Source: a virus (taxonomy: Duplodnaviria > Heunggongvirae > Uroviricota > Caudoviricetes). From it: a DNA stretch of 28,426 bases. The notes beneath the pieces are model-generated. The model worked only from the letters and a program-made list of their open reading frames with translations, had not been told where the DNA came from and ran no database searches. The stretch lies in IMG/VR virus record IMGVR_UViG_2913123054_000008. One strand, given 5' to 3'. This document shows, one piece after another, positions 1,666 through 28,426 of this stretch. Each line of letters begins with the position of its first letter. Positions within the stretch are counted from its first letter, which is position 1. A program made the position numbers and the translations under genes.

Positions 1666-4110
1666 TCAATAGTCGTGGGTCATGTTGGCACGCTGGCGGG
1701 CGCGTTTATCGCGCTCAATCTGTTCGAGCGTGTCGCGTAGTTGTCTGTCAAGCTGATTCCCCGGCGCAACACCTCCCGGCAGATTGATGTTGTATTCGCT
1801 TTTGCTCTGGTCAATGTAAGAGCGCCCCGCCGGTGCGGTAACTGGCTGATAAGCCTGATAGCCGCCATATGTGCTGGTTGCCGGGATGTAGGAATTACCC
1901 TGTGTGGCGGCATTGGTTTTGGCGGCGGTCTGGTCGAGGCTGTCCGACTCTTTGTTGATGATGCCGAGCTTTTCGAGAAGCCAGTCGACACCGCTGCGCA
2001 GCTTGTTAAAAACATTGAGCGGAGCCATCAAGGCAGAGGCCAGTGTCTGACCAAATATGACGCCGACATTTTTGCAGCTATCAAGCGTTTCCTGCGTGGC
2101 CTTAACCGGTGCTATCAGGTCTTTAAACCACTGCCAGACGCCGCGCAGTTTCTCGCCGAGACCATCAAAAATGGGAGCCAGTGGAGCGAACATTTCCCCG
2201 ACTGGGGCAAAGGCACTCATGATGCCCTCAATCACTCCCGAGAAAAATGCGCTGATGGGCTCCCAATATTTACGGATGAGTAGCGCCCCCGCCACAATCG
2301 CCGCACCGACGGCCACTATCGGCCAGGTAATCGCACCGAGCGCTGTCGCAATGGCACTACCGACGACAGTAAAGACCGTACCCAGCACGCCAGCCGCGGC
2401 GATAATGGCATTAATCCCCATGACAACCGGCCACGCAACGAGACCAATGCCGCCGATGATACCAATCAGCGCCAGCGCACCACCGGCGATGATGCTGATA
2501 GTTTCCGCTAACTCCTTGTTGTCTTTGATCCAGTCATCAAGCTTTAGCACATACCGTGTTGCTGTCTGAGTTAGCTGACGCAATGAGCTATCTTGCTGGT
2601 CGTAGAGGTCGGTACCGACGGCCTCAAAAGCGGATTGAAACTCTTTGAAGTCGCCACCTAAGTTATCCTGCATGACCTTAACCAATTCCTCGGTTTTACC
2701 GTCAGAATCCTTAATTATCTTGGTCAGTTCATCCAGTTTTCCACTGGCCGCTGCGGCCATTAACACACTTGCAGCGGAACTGGCTTCCTCGCCGAATATC
2801 GTTTTCATATACTCGGCTTTTTGACCTGTACCGAGGTTGTTGCGCTTAAAGCTGGCTTGTATTTCTTTCAGGATGGTAAAGATTGGCCGTGTATTGCCTT
2901 TTTTATCCATCGTCTTAACGCCAAGCTCTTTAATGGCATCATAGGCTTTGCCAGTTGGAGCCTGCAGTCGACTTAAAACAGCTCGGCTACCGGTTCCTGC
3001 CATCGAACCTATGATTTTTGCATCGTGTAACGCACCCAGCATCGCGGCGGTTTCTTCTAGGCTGACACCGGCATCTTTGGCAACAGGACCAACATATGTA
3101 AGTGAGTCGTTTAATCCCTCAAATGATGCCTGTGTTTTATTTATCGCCATCGATATGACATCTGCTATATGCGATGCCTTGTCATCTGCGAGCCCGAATG
3201 CCGATTTGGTGCCAATAAGCAAAGCGGCGTTTTCCTCCATAGTTTTTTTATTTGCCAGCGACATATTCAGAATGGCCGGTGTTTGCGCCACTATGCCGTC
3301 TTTATCTGCGCCAGATTTGGCTACGATAATCTGCGCGGCGGCGGCATCATCTGCTGAGGCCGCTGAGTTATCGCCGAGCTGACGCGCCTGTTTGCGTAGA
3401 GCCTGCATTTCTGGAGACTGCTTATCGACCCCAAGCACGGCCTGCAGCTCGGAATTCTTCTGCGCAAATTCATAACCGGGTATCAGTAATTTAACCCCGG
3501 CCATCGTTCCCGCTGTCGCGATACCGACCCCGGCAGCACCGGCTGCAGCCATGTTACCGGCAAGCTCTTTACCTGATTTATATCGCTCTTTCACCCGGCT
3601 TAATTTCGCCTGCTGTGCACTGACGCGCGCCAGTGCCTCGCGCTGTCGATTAAGCTGCGCCGTCGTTTCGCTGATGGATGTTTTGAGCCGACGCTCATCG
3701 GCAGACAGGGTGCGGGTATTAATACCGGCCTGCATCAGCTCGGAGCGCTGACGCTGTACCGACGTTCTCAGGCTGTTGTATTTCGTCTGCAGCTCAGAGG
3801 CGGCTCGCTTTGCCGCTTCGAGTGCCTGCGCCTGCGCGCGGGTCGGACTGGTGGTGTTTTTAAACTGCACGGCCAGCTCACCGGCCTCGCGTTTCGCTTT
3901 CTCAAGCGACTGACTGGTCACGGCCAGTTGCGCGCTTGCCTTACGAAAGCCGTCGATTTTTGACGCCTGACCATTCAGGTCACGCAGCCCTTTTTGTGTG
4001 TTGCGAATATCACCCGACAAGGATTTACTCGCGGTCTGGATGGATTTAAGCGGTCTGGTCGCCTGGTCGACCGCTTTCAGCAATACCTCAAGCCTCAGGT
4101 TATTACTCAT
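1666..4110 (-). CDS. T: tail tape measure protein
   Basis: 814 aa; coiled-coil-rich N-terminal part (Q/A/R/E-rich), central Gly/Ala-rich hydrophobic segment, position after the E/E' chaperone pair; size as P2 gpT. Confidence 0.9.
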   Translation of the reverse strand: MSNNLRLEVLLKAVDQATRPLKSIQTASKSLSGDIRNTQKGLRDLNGQASKIDGFRKASAQLAVTSQSLEKAKREAGELAVQFKNTTSPTRAQAQALEAAKRAASELQTKYNSLRTSVQRQRSELMQAGINTRTLSADERRLKTSISETTAQLNRQREALARVSAQQAKLSRVKERYKSGKELAGNMAAAGAAGVGIATAGTMAGVKLLIPGYEFAQKNSELQAVLGVDKQSPEMQALRKQARQLGDNSAASADDAAAAQIIVAKSGADKDGIVAQTPAILNMSLANKKTMEENAALLIGTKSAFGLADDKASHIADVISMAINKTQASFEGLNDSLTYVGPVAKDAGVSLEETAAMLGALHDAKIIGSMAGTGSRAVLSRLQAPTGKAYDAIKELGVKTMDKKGNTRPIFTILKEIQASFKRNNLGTGQKAEYMKTIFGEEASSAASVLMAAAASGKLDELTKIIKDSDGKTEELVKVMQDNLGGDFKEFQSAFEAVGTDLYDQQDSSLRQLTQTATRYVLKLDDWIKDNKELAETISIIAGGALALIGIIGGIGLVAWPVVMGINAIIAAAGVLGTVFTVVGSAIATALGAITWPIVAVGAAIVAGALLIRKYWEPISAFFSGVIEGIMSAFAPVGEMFAPLAPIFDGLGEKLRGVWQWFKDLIAPVKATQETLDSCKNVGVIFGQTLASALMAPLNVFNKLRSGVDWLLEKLGIINKESDSLDQTAAKTNAATQGNSYIPATSTYGGYQAYQPVTAPAGRSYIDQSKSEYNINLPGGVAPGNQLDRQLRDTLEQIERDKRARQRANMTHDY

Positions 4111-4590
4111 TGTGGTTTCCGCTACGCTGCAGCGCCTTTTCGCGCCATGTGATGAGCTCGGTCAGGCTCAAGGAATAGAGCTCTGATGGCGACCAGTGAA
4201 ATATCACTGCAATATCCGCCATCAGGTCATCGGTCGACAGGTCAGGCGGGAAATCTATTCCGCCGAAGCCGGTGACAAAAAACCAATCACCTTAGCGGCC
4301 AGCGACAGCATATCGGGCAGGTTCATTGCGGTAAGCTCCTGCGCCGTGAGCGCGGGATAGGTCATGCGGGGCAGTACTTTAATCAGCGCATCGACTTCGG
4401 ACTGCGCCACCGCAGCCAGACTGACACCGCGCAGGGTACCGGCATTCGGCTCAATCAGGGTAACTTTATCAATCGTCTGACCGGCGCGCTTAATCGGCTT
4501 GTCGAGGGTCACAACGTTCGGGTTTACGGTGTCGATTTCATTACCAGCCGTATCAACAAATTCAGGGGTTTTGCGTGGTGCTTTTGCCAT
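4103..4590 (-). CDS. tail assembly chaperone E+E' (predicted -1 programmed frameshift product)
   Basis: On the coding strand the heptamer T-TTT-TTG (plus coordinates 4276-4282) lies 8 codons before the E stop. The -1 frame stays open from there to a TAA at 4103-4105, overlapping the T start; I translated this frame by hand. Confidence 0.6.
4255..4590 (-). CDS. E: tail assembly chaperone E (zero-frame product)
   Basis: 111 aa ORF between the tail tube and tape measure genes; ends ...IGFLSPASAE just after a TTTTTTG slippery heptamer. Confidence 0.8.
   Translation of the reverse strand: MAKAPRKTPEFVDTAGNEIDTVNPNVVTLDKPIKRAGQTIDKVTLIEPNAGTLRGVSLAAVAQSEVDALIKVLPRMTYPALTAQELTAMNLPDMLSLAAKVIGFLSPASAE
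4276..4282 (-). other. slippery heptamer TTTTTTG for the E/E' -1 frameshift
   Basis: Seen directly in sequence; same heptamer type as described for the P2 E/E' recoding site. Confidence 0.6.
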
Positions 4591-4610
4591 GATGTTTTTC
4601 TCTGCTCTGA

Positions 4611-4645
4611 AAGAGGGTTAATAACCGGCCAGCAGTGCTGACCGG
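4611..4645 (-). terminator. hairpin plus U-rich tract between FII and E (possible attenuator)
   Basis: Inverted repeat ccggccagca / tgctgaccgg (9 of 10 bp pair) at 4625-4645, followed on the minus strand by a T-rich stretch (ttattaaccctctt); sits after the abundant tube gene and before the low-abundance E-T-U-D genes. Confidence 0.4.
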
Positions 4646-4653
4646 TCAGGAAA

Positions 4654-5172
4654 TTACAGCCCGATTGCGCGGCGGTGCTGTTCCAGACGGTCGACGCCGT
4701 TCACCTTCTCAACCATGTTGACGGTATCGATTTCGATGACGTCGCTACCATCAATCGTGAGGCGGTAATAGGTGCATACGGTCGACAGTTTGGTCGAGGT
4801 GTTTTCACCCTGCTTATTCTCGCCGCCGTCGATTTCTTTATGACGGCCACGCATGACCACCTCGACCGCCACGATTTCGCCAGTGTCGTCACGTTGGTAA
4901 GAGCCAGCAAAACGCAACGGCACAGCGTCAGCACCCGGCGCGGCGTACTGCGCCCACAGCGCCACATCAGGCAGGCCACCGACAGACCATTCGACGGTGA
5001 GCGCATCATCGTCGAGACCAAGGTCAATCGCGGCCGCGCCATTCATGCCGCCGCCGCGATAGTTTTCGAGCTTGCGGGTCAGCTTCGGCAGCGTCACGGA
5101 TTCAACAACGCCCATGTAGCTAAGGCCGTCATTGAACATGTTCAGATATTTAAGTTTGCGGGGTAGTGCCAT
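4654..5172 (-). CDS. FII: major tail tube protein
   Basis: 172 aa; size and position directly downstream of the sheath gene as P2 gpFII. Confidence 0.9.
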   Translation of the reverse strand: MALPRKLKYLNMFNDGLSYMGVVESVTLPKLTRKLENYRGGGMNGAAAIDLGLDDDALTVEWSVGGLPDVALWAQYAAPGADAVPLRFAGSYQRDDTGEIVAVEVVMRGRHKEIDGGENKQGENTSTKLSTVCTYYRLTIDGSDVIEIDTVNMVEKVNGVDRLEQHRRAIGL

Positions 5173-19443: not shown

Positions 19444-19452
19444 TCACCTTTT

Positions 19453-19478
19453 AAGCCGCCATTTTGGCGGCTTTTGCT
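19453..19478 (+). terminator. rho-independent terminator after Q
   Basis: Perfect 8 bp stem aagccgcc / ggcggctt with loop atttt, followed by a T-run (ttttgctat). Confidence 0.6.
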
Positions 19479-19481
19479 ATG

Positions 19482-19706
19482 TTAGCCTTTAGACTTTTTA
19501 GGATCATCTTTTCTCTGATAAGTGCGTTCTTCCTGAATTTTCCCATCTTCCTTGTGAATTTTGACCGAACCTGTTTTGTTCGACATAAACTCAGATGTTG
19601 TTTTAATCAGCTCGGCCTTTGTGGTCGCGGTCTTGCTAGGGCGGTCATTGCCCTCTTTTTGCAACTTCCACTTATCGCCATCTTTTGTAATATGATAGTT
19701 ATCCAT
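19482..19706 (-). CDS. small hypothetical protein (DUF2188-like moron between Q and cos)
   Basis: 74 aa from MDNYHITKDGDKWKLQKEGNDRPSK... with a GGAGG RBS; low-GC; the motif pattern (DGxW, KEG, HxxDGKIQ) recalls DUF2188-type small proteins from memory only. Confidence 0.5.
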   Translation of the reverse strand: MDNYHITKDGDKWKLQKEGNDRPSKTATTKAELIKTTSEFMSNKTGSVKIHKEDGKIQEERTYQRKDDPKKSKG

Positions 19707-19910
19707 TAAAGCCTCCAACTGTTGTGGGGAACATAAAGTCTCAATATGGATATTAGCCAAAGCGAAACCGTAAAATTGTGCAACTGATCCCATCCTTTAG
19801 CACCACGCCACAGACGCACCATGCGCCCACGATCACACCCGGCCACTACAGCGCCGTCACGACGTTCTCAGACGATAATTTTTAATAATACGCACCACCG
19901 CTGGCGCGCA

Positions 19911-19929
19911 ATGCTTTCCCCGCCACGCC
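19911..19929. other. cos site (19 nt cohesive-end sequence, P2/186 type)
   Basis: The reverse complement of 19911-19929 reads GGCGTGGCGGGGAAAGCAT, which matches my recollection of the 186 cohesive end and differs at two positions from P2; it sits where cos is expected, just past the Q 3' end. Confidence 0.6.
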
Positions 19930-20253
19930 TGCCCGCTTTATGGAGCGGTTTTAATGCAGTTGCATGACTACTCTGGATCCGCTTCAGCTCTGGCGGCGCA
20001 CGGCCAGAACGGGCAATCCCGGCGCATGCAAAACCATGCACCTGTTGCATGCACGACTAAAAAACGGGGTAATCGCGGAAAAATGGCATAAAAAAATCGG
20101 CATTCACGGTGCCGGTTTGGGGCTGGTTTTATCACGATTACTGGCGCGCAATGCGCCAATAACACTATTGAGGCACATGCTGGCAACAATCACCAGAAAA
20201 ATCGTCGTCCACGGATTTTCATAACAAGAGATAACATATTGATATAGATCCTT

Positions 20254-20445
20254 TTATTTGTGCATTCTGATGTGGTTTAACAAGTGTTTGATAACGACCG
20301 TAAGCTCATCTTTATTGGCTTGCTCGACCATTTTTTCGGTGTAGCTTTCCACCTCACGAGAACTCAGGTCGTTATTTGAAGCCATTACAGTCAGCTTTTT
20401 TGCCCAATCGGCAAACGGGTCTATTGATGAAAGGGAATTAAGCAT
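20254..20445 (-). CDS. small hypothetical protein, divergent from the 143 aa cargo gene (start uncertain)
   Basis: Open frame with helical/charged composition (…SREVESYTEKMVEQANKDELTVVIKHLLNHIRMHK); candidate starts at 20445 (GAGG RBS, 63 aa) or 20385 (43 aa). The 20445 start overlaps the ATG of the opposing gene. Confidence 0.3.
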   Translation of the reverse strand: MLNSLSSIDPFADWAKKLTVMASNNDLSSREVESYTEKMVEQANKDELTVVIKHLLNHIRMHK

Positions 20446-20875
20446 GTCCAAAAACCTCGAATTATTTAACCAGCAGACGGCGGAAATCTTTGCGGTGTTA
20501 TGGGATAACTTCCCGGTGCCACAGGTCATTACCTACGAAAAATTTAACGCCGCGCTACCTGATGACTACTTTGACCAACTTAACTCACCGGAAATGAAAG
20601 CACTGAATCAGTTGCGCAGTGTGGTTGAGGGTACATTCACTTTTCTCAGTGAAAACGGCTACATCCAGTACGGAACAGACCACCAGACCTATTTTTATGA
20701 TGTGCGCCTGACCGAGAAAGCACTCGCCGTGCTTAACAAAAAGCCCGAGGCGCTCGGCGGTAATGAAACAATGGGCGATAAGATTATCAGTGCAGTGAAA
20801 GACGGGACGCCGGGAGTGATTGCCGGTGCGGTGACAAACCTGCTTACCCTCGGTGTCAATCTGGTAACCAGCTAA
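20444..20875 (+). CDS. hypothetical cargo protein, 143 aa, with a C-terminal glycine-zipper-like hydrophobic helix
   Basis: Clean ORF with an AAGGGA RBS-like element; low-GC relative to the core; C-terminus GTPGVIAGAVTNLLTLGVNLV contains a GxxxG pattern; no family recognised. Confidence 0.55.
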   Translation: MSKNLELFNQQTAEIFAVLWDNFPVPQVITYEKFNAALPDDYFDQLNSPEMKALNQLRSVVEGTFTFLSENGYIQYGTDHQTYFYDVRLTEKALAVLNKKPEALGGNETMGDKIISAVKDGTPGVIAGAVTNLLTLGVNLVTS

Positions 20876-20942
20876 CGCCTCGCGGGGCTCGTTGTTCAAC
20901 CCCGTCAGCACTGAAAGCGAGTTTCAGCGCTGACGACGTTTG

Positions 20943-21152
20943 CTATCGTCGACGTGGTGGAGGTGCGTATTTTGTCGGTCTGCTGATGCTATCCAGCTTG
21001 CCGCAATTATCCCTGACTATTTCGGCACACCCGACCAGCTCGGTGGGTGTCAAATTCTCATTGACCATTATCTGCTGCAGGCGATGAACGATAGCCATTA
21101 ACTTAATATTTCTGGTCTGGTGCTGCGGTATTTCACCTGGTAGTCGATGCAT
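20943..21152 (-). CDS. small hypothetical protein (69 aa)
   Basis: ORF with a good RBS (GAGGG, about 7 nt spacer) before the ATG; lies between two copies of a covarying hairpin repeat. Confidence 0.4.
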   Translation of the reverse strand: MHRLPGEIPQHQTRNIKLMAIVHRLQQIMVNENLTPTELVGCAEIVRDNCGKLDSISRPTKYAPPPRRR

Positions 21153-21351
21153 ATTATCACCCTCAATGAATTTTAATCAGTGCCGTCAAAACGCCACTAT
21201 AAAACCCTCTCAGGTCATGTCTCATTCATCACTGGCGTGTCATCAATAGCACATTGAGAAATTTTGAAAGGCAGGACTAAAGCCTCGTGGTCTCGTTACT
21301 CAACCCCGTCGACGCAAAAAGCTGGTTTTTGCGCCAACACGGTTATCATGT

Positions 21352-21582
21352 TTAACGCCAGCTATCGTCTTCCCAAATCTCTTGTAATATGCCGCTTAAT
21401 GTTTCTTTGTCTGCTTCTTTATCGAATCCGATAACCTCTACACCAGTCATTGACCCTTTCTTGACGTTAACTTTTATTGCTGGAAAAACGCATTGTACTC
21501 GATGTGTTATTTCATTCTGAAAAGCATCAATGATCTGTTGCCCTAATTTTTGTTCTTTATCCAACGTGATATTGATTCTCAT
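21352..21582 (-). CDS. dinI: DinI-family protein (DNA-damage-inducible protein I-like)
   Basis: 76 aa; MRINITLDKEQKLGQQIIDAFQNEITHRVQCVFP...VIGFDKEADKETLSGILQEIWEDDSW aligns by eye with E. coli DinI along its length; downstream of an SOS box. Confidence 0.8.
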   Translation of the reverse strand: MRINITLDKEQKLGQQIIDAFQNEITHRVQCVFPAIKVNVKKGSMTGVEVIGFDKEADKETLSGILQEIWEDDSWR

Positions 21583-21585
21583 AAT

Positions 21586-21768
21586 CTAATCAGCCTTATA
21601 AAAATTATCATCTTCGGTTTCGTTATTCTCGCTGTTTGCTAGGTCTGCAATGAGAGTGAGCGCGAGCTTTAAGTCTGATGGCTTGCAGTTTGCAATCAGA
21701 GATACCTCGGCAATAAATTGCACACAAGCCCACTTTTGCTGCGTTCGGCTGAAATGTTCGTCAACCAT
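21586..21768 (-). CDS. small protein, first gene of the SOS-controlled operon (possible Tum antirepressor N-terminal part)
   Basis: 60 aa ORF with a near-perfect RBS (GGAGGG) and a LexA box just upstream; ends with TAG in the same frame as, and 3 nt before, the dinI-like ATG. Confidence 0.5.
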   Translation of the reverse strand: MVDEHFSRTQQKWACVQFIAEVSLIANCKPSDLKLALTLIADLANSENNETEDDNFYKAD

Positions 21769-21787
21769 GGAATCCCTCCTACAGGGT

Positions 21788-21807
21788 TACTGTATGTTTA
21801 TACAGTA
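21788..21807. promoter_or_regulatory. LexA (SOS) box upstream of the 60 aa / dinI-like operon
   Basis: TACTGTATGTTTATACAGTA contains CTGT-N8-ACAG and matches the enterobacterial SOS-box consensus TACTGTATATATATACAGTA at 18 of 20 positions; it overlaps a TATAAA -10-like hexamer on the coding strand. Confidence 0.75.
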
Positions 21808-21881
21808 GCACGTATTGGTAAAAGATGGGAAGAAAAAAAACGAATAGGGCGATTGTCGTATGTACATGATATGGATATAAA

Positions 21882-25673: not shown

Positions 25674-26045
25674 TCAGTTAAGAGCGGTGCGCTGGTCGAT
25701 GTAGCGACAATCAATCGCTTGTTGAGTCAGCTTATCGCGCCATGCTTTTACATTTACGAGGGTTCGGCTTCGTTTAGCAGCTTCCTCTTTGTTGGAAAAG
25801 TCTTTGGTCGGAGCTTTGAGAAGGACTCCCTCATCGAGCCATTGCCAGACCAGACGCTCGCTAACACCGCGAGTAGCGGCGAAGTCTTTCACAGTCATCG
25901 TGTCTGACATAGCGGAGCGAATCATTGTCTGTAGAGCTGGCAGCATGGCGGTAACGATGGCATCAAACTGTGTTGGATCTAGCAGCACAGTTTGATTTTG
26001 TGAGTTTTGCGAGTCGTGCGTCGAGATTGATTTTGCATCTGACAT
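25674..26045 (-). CDS. Apl/Cox-like excisionase-type HTH regulator (first gene of the early lytic operon)
   Basis: ORF with a strong RBS (AGGAGA) at the 26045 start; HTH-like segment VKDFAATRGVSERLVWQWLDEG; divergent from the repressor gene. Several internal Met codons make the true start uncertain. Confidence 0.55.
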   Translation of the reverse strand: MSDAKSISTHDSQNSQNQTVLLDPTQFDAIVTAMLPALQTMIRSAMSDTMTVKDFAATRGVSERLVWQWLDEGVLLKAPTKDFSNKEEAAKRSRTLVNVKAWRDKLTQQAIDCRYIDQRTALN

Positions 26046-26158
26046 ATCGCATTATCTCCTGTTGTTTGAAATGTAGTGCAGTGGTGTGCATCTTGGTCGA
26101 TGAGCACCAATATAGATCGCTAAATTTTGGTTGTAAACAAAATTCTTGTTGGTGTCAT
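26046..26158. promoter_or_regulatory. immunity switch region between the apl-like and cI genes (lytic/lysogenic promoters and operators expected)
   Basis: 113 bp AT-rich intergenic region between divergent regulators; contains short inverted repeats (e.g. TTGGT-N8-ACCAA). Individual promoters are not resolved by eye. Confidence 0.4.
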
Positions 26159-27004
26159 ATGTCTAAAAATGATGTTAATGCGTCTGCCGCATTGGAACGT
26201 GTCCTTTCTGCATACGGCTTTAAGCAGCAAAAGGAACTAGCCGAAAGGCTTGGCATACATGCAAACAACGTGAGTAGCTGGCTTGCTAGAAACGTAATCC
26301 CTAGCAACGTTTTCGTTGAGTGTGCTCTTGATACTGGAGCTGACCTGCGATGGCTAATTAATGGTGAGCTTGCAAATGCAAGATTTGAAGTGGTGAAAAC
26401 TAAGCTTAAAGGTAAGCAACTCTATGATGAAATCATGGCAAATGGAGGGAGGGCGGTTCTGCGTCGGATTCTCGATGCGTATGGTTTTACTCTGCAAAAA
26501 GAGCTTGGAGATTTATTAGGTATATCTTCCGGCACTATAAGCACTTGGGTTAGACGCGATTTTTTCCCCGGTGACGTGGTTGTCACTTGCGCCCTTGATA
26601 CTGGCGTATCGTTAGAATGGTTATCAACCGGAAAAGGCCAGATGCGTAACAGTAATGATGGTGAACCGGCAAATGCTTTAACGATTAGAAAGTGCCGCCT
26701 CGAGGCGGGCGAACTCAAAGATATCGGACGCTGGACTCCTGATATATCTATGGTTTCATCAAATACTGATGATTTAGTGTTTATTGATGGTGTGAGCACA
26801 TCTTGGCTTGTTGATAGTTCTAACTCGAAGATAGGAAATGGTCGCTGGCTTATTGGTATTGATGGCGCACTCGATGTTTTTGACGTAATCAGGTTGCCAG
26901 GCGGAAAGGTCAGGTTATCAAATAAGTCTGCTGAGTTTGAATGTAATATTTCAGATATCACACCATCAGGTGCGGTTATTTTTACTTTGGAAAAGCATGT
27001 TTAA
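26159..27004 (+). CDS. cI: CI-type immunity repressor with an apparently duplicated N-terminal DNA-binding domain
   Basis: 281 aa from MSKNDVNAS...; two tandem segments (about aa 10-69 and 99-158) each resemble the 186 CI N-terminal HTH domain, followed by a C-terminal domain resembling the CI oligomerisation domain. Confidence 0.75.
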   Translation: MSKNDVNASAALERVLSAYGFKQQKELAERLGIHANNVSSWLARNVIPSNVFVECALDTGADLRWLINGELANARFEVVKTKLKGKQLYDEIMANGGRAVLRRILDAYGFTLQKELGDLLGISSGTISTWVRRDFFPGDVVVTCALDTGVSLEWLSTGKGQMRNSNDGEPANALTIRKCRLEAGELKDIGRWTPDISMVSSNTDDLVFIDGVSTSWLVDSSNSKIGNGRWLIGIDGALDVFDVIRLPGGKVRLSNKSAEFECNISDITPSGAVIFTLEKHV

Positions 27005-27013
27005 GGAGCAGTA

Positions 27014-27352
27014 ATGAAAAAGTTTATATTTGCGATAGTCTGCATTGCACTTTCTTCCTCAGCCATAGCCGCTGAGAAGTTTAAAGAGATAGACGGCGCT
27101 GCATATGGTGACAAGTGGCCTCTAACCTTTGAAAAGGCAAAGGTATCATGTGTTAACCGTGCTTATGCTTTTGTGTATGACATCAAAACTGATGATAGAT
27201 ATCCTCTGAATGGCATGGCGGTAGATGCTGTTAAATCAGGAAAGCTGGAGGGGTCTAACTTAGATGACGTATGGAAGGATGACCCTGAGTATGACGGCGT
27301 TAAAATTTCAATTTCACCGGTGATTGATGCCGCTACAGCCCTTTGTAATTAA
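27014..27352 (+). CDS. small secreted/periplasmic protein (moron between cI and int)
   Basis: 112 aa; N-terminal signal peptide MKKFIFAIVCIALSSSAIA followed by AEK; two Cys in the mature part; low-GC; possibly YebY/DUF2511-like, from memory and unverified. Confidence 0.55.
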   Translation: MKKFIFAIVCIALSSSAIAAEKFKEIDGAAYGDKWPLTFEKAKVSCVNRAYAFVYDIKTDDRYPLNGMAVDAVKSGKLEGSNLDDVWKDDPEYDGVKISISPVIDAATALCN

Positions 27353-27376
27353 TTTTCTTTTAGCCTCGGTATCGCA

Positions 27377-28426
27377 ATGACTGTAAGTAAACAAAAAAGT
27401 GGAAAATGGTTGTGTGAACTCTATCCAAATGGTCGAGAAGGGCGGCGTATACGTCGGCAATTCAATACCAAAGGTGAGGCCGAGGCATTTGAAGCATTTA
27501 CCAAAAGCGAGAGTGAAGATAAGCCGTGGCTCGGCAAGAAAGAAGACCGCCGACGCTTAAGCGAGATTATTCAGCTTTGGCACAATTTGCACGGTCAAGC
27601 GTTAGTCGCCAGTAAGTCGAGGTTTGCAAAGCTTCAAATCGTATGTAATGGACTTGGCGACCCGATTGCATCTCGCCTTACCGCGAAAGACTGGGCTCAT
27701 TATCGTGACCGTCGATTACGTGGTGAAATAGACAATGGTTATCATAAAGACCCCTCGAAATGGATCGCTAAACCTATAACCGTCAATCGCGAACAACAAT
27801 ACCTAGAAGCAGTGTTTAATGAGCTCCGCCGGTTAGGGGAGTGGAGCCTACCCAATCCACTTGATGGGATCCGAGTATTCAAAGAAGCTGAGAAAGAAAT
27901 GTCCTGGCTAACTTTGTCTCAGCTCCCGGAGCTGTTTCGAGCCTGCGAGCAATACGGCAAAGAAGACCTCACCATGATTGTTAAGGTGTGCCTTGCAACC
28001 GGCGCTCGATGGGGGGAAGCGGAGAGATTGACCCGACCTCAACTTTCTCCATATAAACTAACGTTCACCAAAACCAAAGGTAAGAAGAATCGCACAGTTC
28101 CTATTCCTAAATGGCTGTACGACGAGTTGTCCGTACGTCAAGGCAGAATGTTTAAACCCTGCTATCAGGAGTTTAAAAAGATGCTCAAACTAACGAATAT
28201 TGAATTGACGGAAGGGCAGAAGACGCACGTTTTGCGTCATACTTTTGGTGCGCATTTTATGATGAACGGAGGGAATATACTGGTGCTGCAAAAAATTCTC
28301 GGACATGCCAATATTCGAGAAACAATGAAGTATGCGCACTTTGCTCCTGACCACCTTGAACAAGCTGTAACCCTCAATCCGTTATCGCTGTATGTTGGCG
28401 ACAATGTGGCGGCAGAGGTTGCATAA
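27377..28426 (+). CDS. int: tyrosine integrase (P2/186-type)
   Basis: 349 aa; catalytic-domain motifs visible (ATGARWGE, HVLRHTF, ...LGHANIRETMKYAH with the terminal Tyr); stop codon at 28424-28426, so attL is expected just beyond the window. Confidence 0.9.
   Translation: MTVSKQKSGKWLCELYPNGREGRRIRRQFNTKGEAEAFEAFTKSESEDKPWLGKKEDRRRLSEIIQLWHNLHGQALVASKSRFAKLQIVCNGLGDPIASRLTAKDWAHYRDRRLRGEIDNGYHKDPSKWIAKPITVNREQQYLEAVFNELRRLGEWSLPNPLDGIRVFKEAEKEMSWLTLSQLPELFRACEQYGKEDLTMIVKVCLATGARWGEAERLTRPQLSPYKLTFTKTKGKKNRTVPIPKWLYDELSVRQGRMFKPCYQEFKKMLKLTNIELTEGQKTHVLRHTFGAHFMMNGGNILVLQKILGHANIRETMKYAHFAPDHLEQAVTLNPLSLYVGDNVAAEVA

Follow-up and report, generated by a model that had tools for sequence, protein, structure and literature searches.

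A predicted periplasmic DUF2511/YebY-family protein is encoded by old, mobile cargo between the repressor and integrase genes of P2/186-like prophages

The gene at positions 27,014 to 27,352 of a 28,426-nt viral sequence (IMG/VR record IMGVR_UViG_2913123054_000008; the whole stretch is referred to here as the window) is operon-embedded cargo, old and mobile, and not a core phage gene. It encodes a small, predicted exported protein of the DUF2511/YebY family and lies between the immunity repressor gene cI and the integrase gene int. We tentatively propose that the protein protects the lysogen at its envelope. The features on which the argument draws are as follows.

26,027 to 26,055, + strand: weak candidate lysogenic promoter pL (TTGATT, 17 nt, CATTAT; 8/12)
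26,159 to 27,004, + strand: cI immunity repressor, 281 aa, two tandem PF07022 HTH domains and a PF16452 C-terminal domain; phrog_4
27,003 to 27,008, + strand: Shine-Dalgarno sequence AAGGAG for the DUF2511 gene, 5 nt before its ATG and overlapping the cI stop codon
27,014 to 27,352, + strand: DUF2511 ORF, ATG start, 112 aa, N-terminus MKKFIFAIVCIALSSSAIA
27,014 to 27,070, + strand: predicted signal peptide, residues 1 to 19 (MKKFIFAIVCIALSSSAIA), with a predicted signal peptidase I site between AIA and AEK
27,071 to 27,352 (stop included), + strand: mature domain of predicted YebY/DUF2511 fold, 93 aa (PF10709, 7n0j)
27,363 to 27,370, + strand: junction motif GCCTCGGT, within the 24-nt spacer 5' of int
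27,377 to 28,426, + strand: tyrosine integrase, 349 aa, PF24624 and PF00589; phrog_1

The window is a P2/186-like (186/PSP3-like, Peduoviridae) prophage of Salmonella and E. coli. Its closest deposited phages are Eganvirus members, for example PSP3 and SW9, and the rest of the window encodes gpD, tape measure, terminase, portal, gpA, Fil, CII, and an Apl-like gene. A sequence-only reading of this DNA had placed a gene for an exported protein between cI and int, and this is borne out by the flanking genes, which Pfam assigns to a CI repressor and an integrase; the ORF itself has the coordinates, strand, 112-aa length, and leader that the reading had described. The repressor is of a tandem-HTH type, compared with the single HTH domain and 192 aa of phage 186 CI, and all 10 of the 10 phage records with a CI of the tandem type (>66% identity) carry the DUF2511 gene. 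A 344-aa ORF starting from GTG at 25,970 was considered for cI and set aside as an over-extension, as homologs and sibling prophages begin at the ATG at 26,159, with cI called as a 281-aa gene in the siblings. Elsewhere in the window, positions 19,444 to 21,880 correspond to the portal-gpA interval, a known variable hotspot of P2, which here holds a DUF2188 protein (19,482 to 19,793, - strand), a DinI-like protein (21,352 to 21,582, - strand), and several small unassigned ORFs; siblings with an identical DUF2511 protein and cI and int 99 to 100% identical to those of the window carry an nSTAND1/AAA ATPase or other genes in this interval.

The ORF is a genuine gene under purifying selection. 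Its product matches PF10709 (DUF2511/YebY) with an E value of 1.1e-18 and 67.8 bits against a cut-off of 21, covering profile positions 5 to 87 of 87, and it is matched over its full length by phrog_2950 (E 1.8e-55). NCBIfam gave no matching model. Thus, although the sequence-only reading had judged the function not assignable from sequence, the family is assignable, and a solved structure exists for it. The identical 112-aa protein is recorded in Salmonella enterica on 919 contigs. In E. coli, the cI-DUF2511-int block was matched in 68 of 5,426 genomes, 67 of these over the whole block, and it is present at ≥99% nucleotide identity in 17 complete genomes. In a set of 84 loci, the mature part has a median dN/dS of 0.11, compared with 0.105 for cI and 0.03 for int, and its dN of 0.17 is about that of cI (0.17) and approximately sixfold that of int (0.03). 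No positive selection was demonstrated on the gene in this set of 84 loci, where selection is purifying overall.

The protein is predicted to be exported, and its location in the periplasm is well predicted. The leader consists of an MKK n-region and a hydrophobic core and ends at the predicted cleavage site. Conservation in the clade alignment rises at this site, with E21 invariant and A20 and K22 conserved in at least 90% of members, and pN/pS is 0.64 for the leader versus 0.32 for the mature part. A lipoprotein reading based on Cys10 was rejected: the residues A-I-V-C do not form a lipobox, and such a reading would leave too short an h-region. The homolog YebY is periplasmic by experiment (PMC8689200). 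The mature protein is acidic (pI 4.6) and contains no histidine and a single methionine.

The predicted structure places the protein in the same family as the Pfam match does. An AlphaFold (AF2) model built from 22 clade members has a mean pLDDT of 79 and is weak only at the leader (residues 1 to 20, pLDDT ~52) and in a loop at approximately residues 91 to 100. As modeled, the protein has the compact fold by which the YebY family is recognized, a four-stranded antiparallel sheet ringed by helices. Foldseek, which the sequence-only reading had suggested as a check, returned the chains of E. coli YebY (PDB 7n0j) on top with a TM score of 0.84 (target-normalized) and an rmsd of 2.8, followed by the lantibiotic self-resistance lipoprotein MlbQ, with no other significant match to the model. 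A sequence search also recovered YebY 7n0j (E 3.8e-8; 30 to 34% identity). Beyond family, fold, and size, the window protein shares with YebY a Sec-type leader, the framework W-P/A-x-T ... C ... YPLN ... DP ... LC, and both disulfide cysteines: Cys46 and Cys111 align with the YebY pair Cys48-Cys113, so that a disulfide is predicted here as well, and within the clade C46 is invariant and C111 is conserved in at least 90% of members. In YebY, this pair is essential for expression, and loss of either cysteine abolishes it (PMC8689200). One E. coli allele lineage (P0009; L071, 1,802 to 2,212; L072) ends in ...ALWE rather than ...ALCE, replacing the disulfide residue Cys111 with Trp; because YebY lacking either cysteine loses expression, this lineage may be decaying or adapted.

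The arrangement of the locus is that of an operon that begins with cI and ends with int. The DUF2511 gene has a strong ribosome-binding site of its own, the cI stop codon TAA (27,002 to 27,004) being embedded in the sequence TAAGGAG. The gap between cI and the DUF2511 gene is 9 nt, and a TAAGG(A/G) motif with a gap of 8 to 9 nt is kept in 86 of 88 related loci. A further 24 nt separate the DUF2511 gene from int, which has no clear Shine-Dalgarno sequence of its own in the sequence upstream. No terminator-like site was found in positions 27,004 to 27,377, and promoter-like matches between cI and int occur at chance level (5 found versus 5.3 expected). The weak candidate for the lysogenic promoter pL, which scores below the threshold of the promoter scan, lies at the 5' end of the divergent apl-like gene, a position that parallels that of the annotated pL of phage 186 inside the 5' end of apl. 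In both phage 186 and phage K139, the counterpart genes are annotated as one lysogenic transcript from pL. It can thus soundly be inferred, by analogy with these phages, that the DUF2511 gene is co-transcribed with the repressor, and the layout, with its gaps of 9 and 24 nt and neither terminator nor promoter intervening, fits the co-transcription with cI that had been proposed from the letters of the DNA. Two proteomics papers that name DUF2511 were considered as evidence of expression and rejected: a peptide listed in one of them (PISVIQIDDP) matches chromosomal YebY, and the other gives an accession only, which was not assignable.

The spacer in front of int contains a further recurrent element. 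Almost all of the related loci have the motif GCCTCGGT 7 to 12 nt ahead of the int start codon ATG; the motif looks like either a cassette-junction element or an element of int translation. It also recurs 3' of other genes occupying this interval (L012, 4,983 to 4,990 and 5,350 to 5,357; L031, about 4,885), with one copy following the gene for a 134-aa protein and another, in the form CCTCGGT, following a bPH/SHOCT gene.

The gene, its family, and its context between cI and int are already on record. The orthologs of phrog_2950 in PSP3 (orf28/gp28), SEN1, SW9, SI22, Midge, RCIP0057, and vB_EcoM-613R3 occupy the same position between cI and int; they are 63 to 84% identical to the window protein and carry the annotation "DUF2511 domain-containing" or "putative periplasmic protein," whereas the window allele is the version found in Salmonella and E. 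coli prophages. In the PSP3 record, orf28 is described by its similarity to a hypothetical protein of E. coli; RefSeq names it DUF2511, and the annotators of Midge give a putative periplasmic protein. Hadley et al. (2022) reported that, in a number of Enterobacteriaceae, genes for YebY homologs are flanked by one for a XerD-like recombinase on one side and one for a PF07022 CI repressor on the other (PMC8689200). Three points are new here: in enteric 186/PSP3-like phages, the interval acts as a site for cassettes; the exchange of DUF2511 alleles is independent of both immunity and integration specificity; and DUF2511 genes linked to a repressor are spread over P2-like lineages.

The behavior of the interval as a cargo slot is evident from a comparison of related phages. 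The sequence-only reading had raised the question of whether cI directly adjoins int in relatives, and it does so in phage 186, where cI overlaps int by 1 nt and the DUF2511 gene is absent, and in RE-2010, where the gap is 2 nt and a 401-aa gene is found after int instead. In Klebsiella phage 4LV2017, cI and int are separated by two unrelated genes. The slot of E. coli E21 encodes a different secreted protein, of 134 aa (phrog_3807), instead of DUF2511. The int of E21 is 88% identical in DNA to that of the window, and its cI is of the same tandem type, with ~67% protein identity as judged from the near-identical cI of L012. In other prophages, the 134-aa protein is found in front of DUF2511 or a bPH+SHOCT protein is found behind it. 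The gene for the 134-aa protein, which has no match in Pfam or PADLOC, was located at the following positions.

L095 (E21), 3,568 to 3,972: 134-aa phrog_3807 gene
L012, 4,570 to 4,974: 134-aa phrog_3807 gene
L111, 1,992 to 2,399: 134-aa phrog_3807 gene
L113, 1,989 to 2,396: 134-aa phrog_3807 gene

The P2-type phages FSL SP-004 and P37 carry the 134-aa gene just downstream of int, so exported proteins of no assigned function recur around int in Peduoviridae. The bPH_3 and SHOCT protein (166 to 170 aa) was observed 3' of DUF2511 in L031 to L033 and L037 (about 4,350 to 4,862) and in L097 to L100, and its presence in two very divergent lineages, enteric and Winslowiella, suggests that the pairing with DUF2511 is recurrent. 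Neither the DUF2511 protein nor the alternative slot cargo has a match in PADLOC-DB 2.0 at E ≤ 0.01.

Within this slot, the place of the DUF2511 gene is close to fixed. Among members of the clade, comprising 80 IMG/VR loci and 3 genome loci (the scan of genome contigs found only three species-representative genomes), the gene follows cI and precedes int wherever int was captured; it is directly after cI in 86 of 88 loci, with the 134-aa gene intervening in the other two, and cI and int are its neighbors at all six genomic places examined. The sequence-only reading had taken the gene for a low-GC moron. The GC content of the gene (42.2%) is indeed low compared with that of the window (53.2%), but this is not specific to the gene, as cI (43.6%) and int (46.7%) share it; because they do, low GC marks the whole lysogeny module and not an insertion, and a recent horizontal insertion marked by low GC was therefore rejected. 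The idea of a moron holds insofar as the gene is present or absent at the same junction among relatives, yet a classical moron has its own promoter and terminator, which this gene lacks, and its GC content does not set it apart either. Nor is it a recent one-off insertion, given that diverged homologs follow the repressor gene in several lineages of P2-like prophages.

The mobility of the gene is seen in its alleles, whose exchange is tied neither to immunity nor to integration specificity. In several prophages, cI and int are ~98% identical to those of the window but the DUF2511 protein is only 64 to 65% identical, and in others the reverse is found; near-identical backgrounds of cI and int with such divergent alleles (~64% identity) mean that the cassette was swapped. 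Between the window and L044, nucleotide identity is 95 to 100% through cI into the leader, falls to 45 to 72% over the mature part of DUF2511, and returns to 98% approximately 60 nt into int. Among 3,486 pairs of loci, 91 combine near-identical cI and int with divergent DUF2511, and 103 combine divergent cI with near-identical DUF2511. At ≥80% identity, six groups of alleles can be told apart in the enterobacterial set; residues 35 to 80 form a conserved core, and the variation lies in residues 23 to 34 and 81 to 109 (residues 81 to 100 and the C-terminal helix).

The age of the association is apparent from the wider family. With a word-indexed protein search, only close relatives (≥50% identity) came up, and an exhaustive HMMER search recovered the rest of the DUF2511 family, which amounts to 867 representatives at 50% identity, the window clade being one of them. 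By profile score, proteins of P2-like prophages are among the closest to the window protein (E 1e-22 to 1e-14), with a YebY-like representative at 1e-12. Six further top-scoring representatives with readable context are all located in P2-like prophages or remnants of them; five of these were counted as directly following a repressor gene, although one of the five has an unassigned 118-aa ORF in front. The nearest relatives with readable context lie beside a repressor gene or at the int/ogr end. In Edwardsiella, a tandem cI is followed by DUF2511 and then int, and in Yersinia, the same order is found with a single-HTH cI; the Winslowiella relative lies in a degraded prophage remnant in the order tandem cI, DUF2511, bPH/SHOCT; and of two metagenomic P2-like elements with Ogr/Toprim, one has an HTH_3 repressor ahead of DUF2511 and the other the 118-aa ORF. 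One relative adjoins gpD/gpU/tape measure, and one close relative is chromosomal, adjoining frr/uppS; another lies on a sequence too short for its neighbors to be read.

The relationship of these proteins to host YebY bears directly on their possible role. YebY of E. coli (PF10709, PDB 7n0j) is encoded by the third gene of the copper-uptake operon yobA-yebZ-yebY. The window protein is only 30 to 34% identical to it, and its gene lies in the lysogenic operon of a prophage, not beside copC/yobA and copD/yebZ. The window protein did not group with the AZY-linked YebY proteins: in a neighbor-joining tree, which carries no support values, the enterobacterial phage clade, a second phage clade, and the AZY-linked YebY clade are all separate, and the sequences also differ at positions 67 and 87. 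G67 and W87 are kept in the window protein, in 19 of 19 and 18 of 19 members of the phage clades, and in most of the DUF2511 family, whereas each is found in none of the six members of the AZY clade. Based on the separation of the clades and this residue pattern, the phage DUF2511 proteins do not appear to have been copied recently from host YebY or to mimic it. Because the AZY-linked YebY proteins lack G67 and W87, E. coli YebY is a member of a derived subfamily, and its function may be a poor guide to that of other DUF2511 proteins. In Winslowiella toletana (L097/L098, 1 to 6,000), the prophage remnant with its tandem cI, 35%-identical DUF2511, bPH+SHOCT gene, and integrase fragment is located ~2.7 kb from a chromosomal copC-copD-yebY, placing phage-type and AZY-type DUF2511 genes side by side; this proximity may be a coincidence or a trace of gene capture.

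How, then, might the protein act? In the lysogen, its gene would be transcribed from pL along with that of the repressor, as the homologous operons of 186 and K139 suggest, and the protein would thus be made continuously and exported to the periplasm. There it may serve as a non-enzymatic binder, by analogy with its structural relatives: YebY damps the inner-membrane importer YebZ, and MlbQ is proposed to bind a lantibiotic. Such a binder could protect the lysogen at its envelope, most likely through a block, after adsorption, of a step in the entry of superinfecting phage or of another envelope-acting agent. The identity, localization, and operon parts of this explanation are very probable; for the function itself, envelope protection of the lysogen, most likely as superinfection exclusion, our estimate is a probability of roughly 0.4.

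This tentative assignment to exclusion draws on precedent, on the literature on defense hotspots, and on the evolution of the locus. Vibrio phage K139 (Peduoviridae), which is related to P2, encodes the small protein Glo in its pL lysogenic operon, the gene lying between cI and int. According to the GenBank record and a citing paper, Glo is soluble and periplasmic and is reported to take part in phage exclusion. The likeness of Glo to the window protein is one of position and compartment only, as the two belong to different PHROGs, and Glo was rejected as a remote homolog of DUF2511, there being no alignment and no detectable sequence similarity. The cI-int interval of K139-like P2-related phages has been described as a defense hotspot by Rousset et al. 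(PMC9122126), and a 2026 preprint places 8% of P2 defense systems between int and the primase gene. The guess is further encouraged by the alternation of DUF2511 with another secreted protein in the slot, by an evolutionary rate like that of the repressor, by the exchange of cassettes, and by the roles as binders that have been suggested for MlbQ and YebY. The gene also lies in the lysogeny module, as that of Glo does, and its linkage to a repressor recurs over P2-like lineages, including those with a single-HTH CI and with an HTH_3 repressor. Against exclusion, allele shuffling is common in mosaic phages and is no proof of an arms race, YebY, the only characterized Gram-negative homolog, acts in copper import and not in defense, and the lack of similarity to Glo, the lack of a PADLOC match, and the overall purifying selection must also be taken into account.

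The homology to YebY raises the main alternative, a YebY-like copper conversion, which is possible although it appears unlikely. Here, the phage protein would bind or compete at the YobA/YebZ (CopC/CopD) importer of the host, lowering copper entry and thereby altering copper stress, the metallation of NDH-2, or mar-dependent antibiotic tolerance. Co-expression of YebY and YebZ lowers copper accumulation, and both YebY and YobA are needed for NDH-2 activity (PMC11923076, PMC8689200), and the window protein is a homolog of YebY with 30 to 34% identity, the same fold, and aligned disulfide cysteines. At least one host of this type of prophage, Winslowiella, carries the AZY operon. The operon is assumed to be present in the other enterobacterial hosts as well, and Salmonella prophages carry periplasmic metal-related cargo, such as sodC. 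However, the case for copper is weakened by the separation of the phage clades from the AZY-linked YebY clade, by the missing AZY-specific residues, and by the want of plausible metal ligands in the mature protein, which has no histidine, one methionine, and its cysteines tied up in the predicted disulfide. Proteins of P2-like prophages also score closer to the window protein than the YebY-like representative does, and the pattern at positions 67 and 87 implies that the YebY-specific surface residues were not copied by the phage proteins. YebY itself binds copper weakly and only when reduced, and deletion of the AZY operon leaves copper tolerance unchanged (PMC8689200).

A second alternative, less probable again, is that the protein is some other periplasmic factor of host physiology or fitness, concerned neither with phage exclusion nor with copper, such as a binder of antimicrobial peptides or cell-wall precursors or a stress buffer, and kept as a benefit to the lysogen in the gut or host. 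The size of the family, with its 867 representatives in many contexts, the chromosomal location of at least one close relative beside frr/uppS, and the purifying selection on the gene are all compatible with such a role, as is the link of MlbQ to lantibiotic self-resistance. MlbQ (PDB 2mvo), from Microbispora, is linked to self-resistance to the lantibiotic NAI-107 and shares the fold and the position of the disulfide (PMC8689200); it is 21% identical to the window protein in the Foldseek alignment and is proposed to bind its ligand outside of the cytoplasm. Yet MlbQ is a lipoprotein with a long unstructured linker, from a Gram-positive host, and is encoded with ABC-transporter genes, whereas the window protein has neither a lipobox nor transporter genes as neighbors, being flanked by cI and int. 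The tight and recurrent linkage to a repressor in P2-like phages, together with the alternation with other cargo in a slot that is a documented defense hotspot, also argues for a function tied to the lysogenic state.

Alternatively, the protein might serve the phage life cycle itself, for example in setting up or maintaining lysogeny, in induction, or in release, and not be cargo that benefits the host. Such a role would suit the deep, conserved association with the lysogeny module over several P2-like lineages and the presence of the gene in 67 of the 68 block-matching E. coli genomes and in every phage record with the tandem CI type, but it is very unlikely, as 186, RE-2010, and the classical P2-type phages examined do without the gene, an unrelated gene can replace it in E21, the C111W change of one lineage should destabilize the protein, and it is not obvious how an exported protein of 10 kDa would reach the lysis-lysogeny circuitry in the cytoplasm.

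A broader form of the exclusion reading may also be considered, although it is improbable as it stands. The DUF2511/YebY fold could at its core be a periplasmic exclusion or immunity module of P2-like phages that clamps an inner-membrane channel or an incoming phage component, with the copper regulator YebY as a domesticated and derived offshoot that lacks G67 and W87. In that case, the alleles of the phages would differ in exclusion specificity and would be shuffled as cassettes between immunity types.

DUF2511/YebY proteins are widespread, and the two members that have been studied have been given unrelated proposed roles, in copper import and in lantibiotic immunity. The phage clade offers the simplest context, a single gene behind a repressor, together with naturally swapped alleles, and it is therefore a convenient handle on what this fold binds. 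Should the protein act on copper import, it would represent a new kind of lysogenic conversion. Should it instead be an exclusion factor, it would add a soluble periplasmic type to the defenses of P2-like prophages in Salmonella, E. coli, and Klebsiella, and the cI-int defense hotspot would be extended from Vibrio phages to enteric ones.
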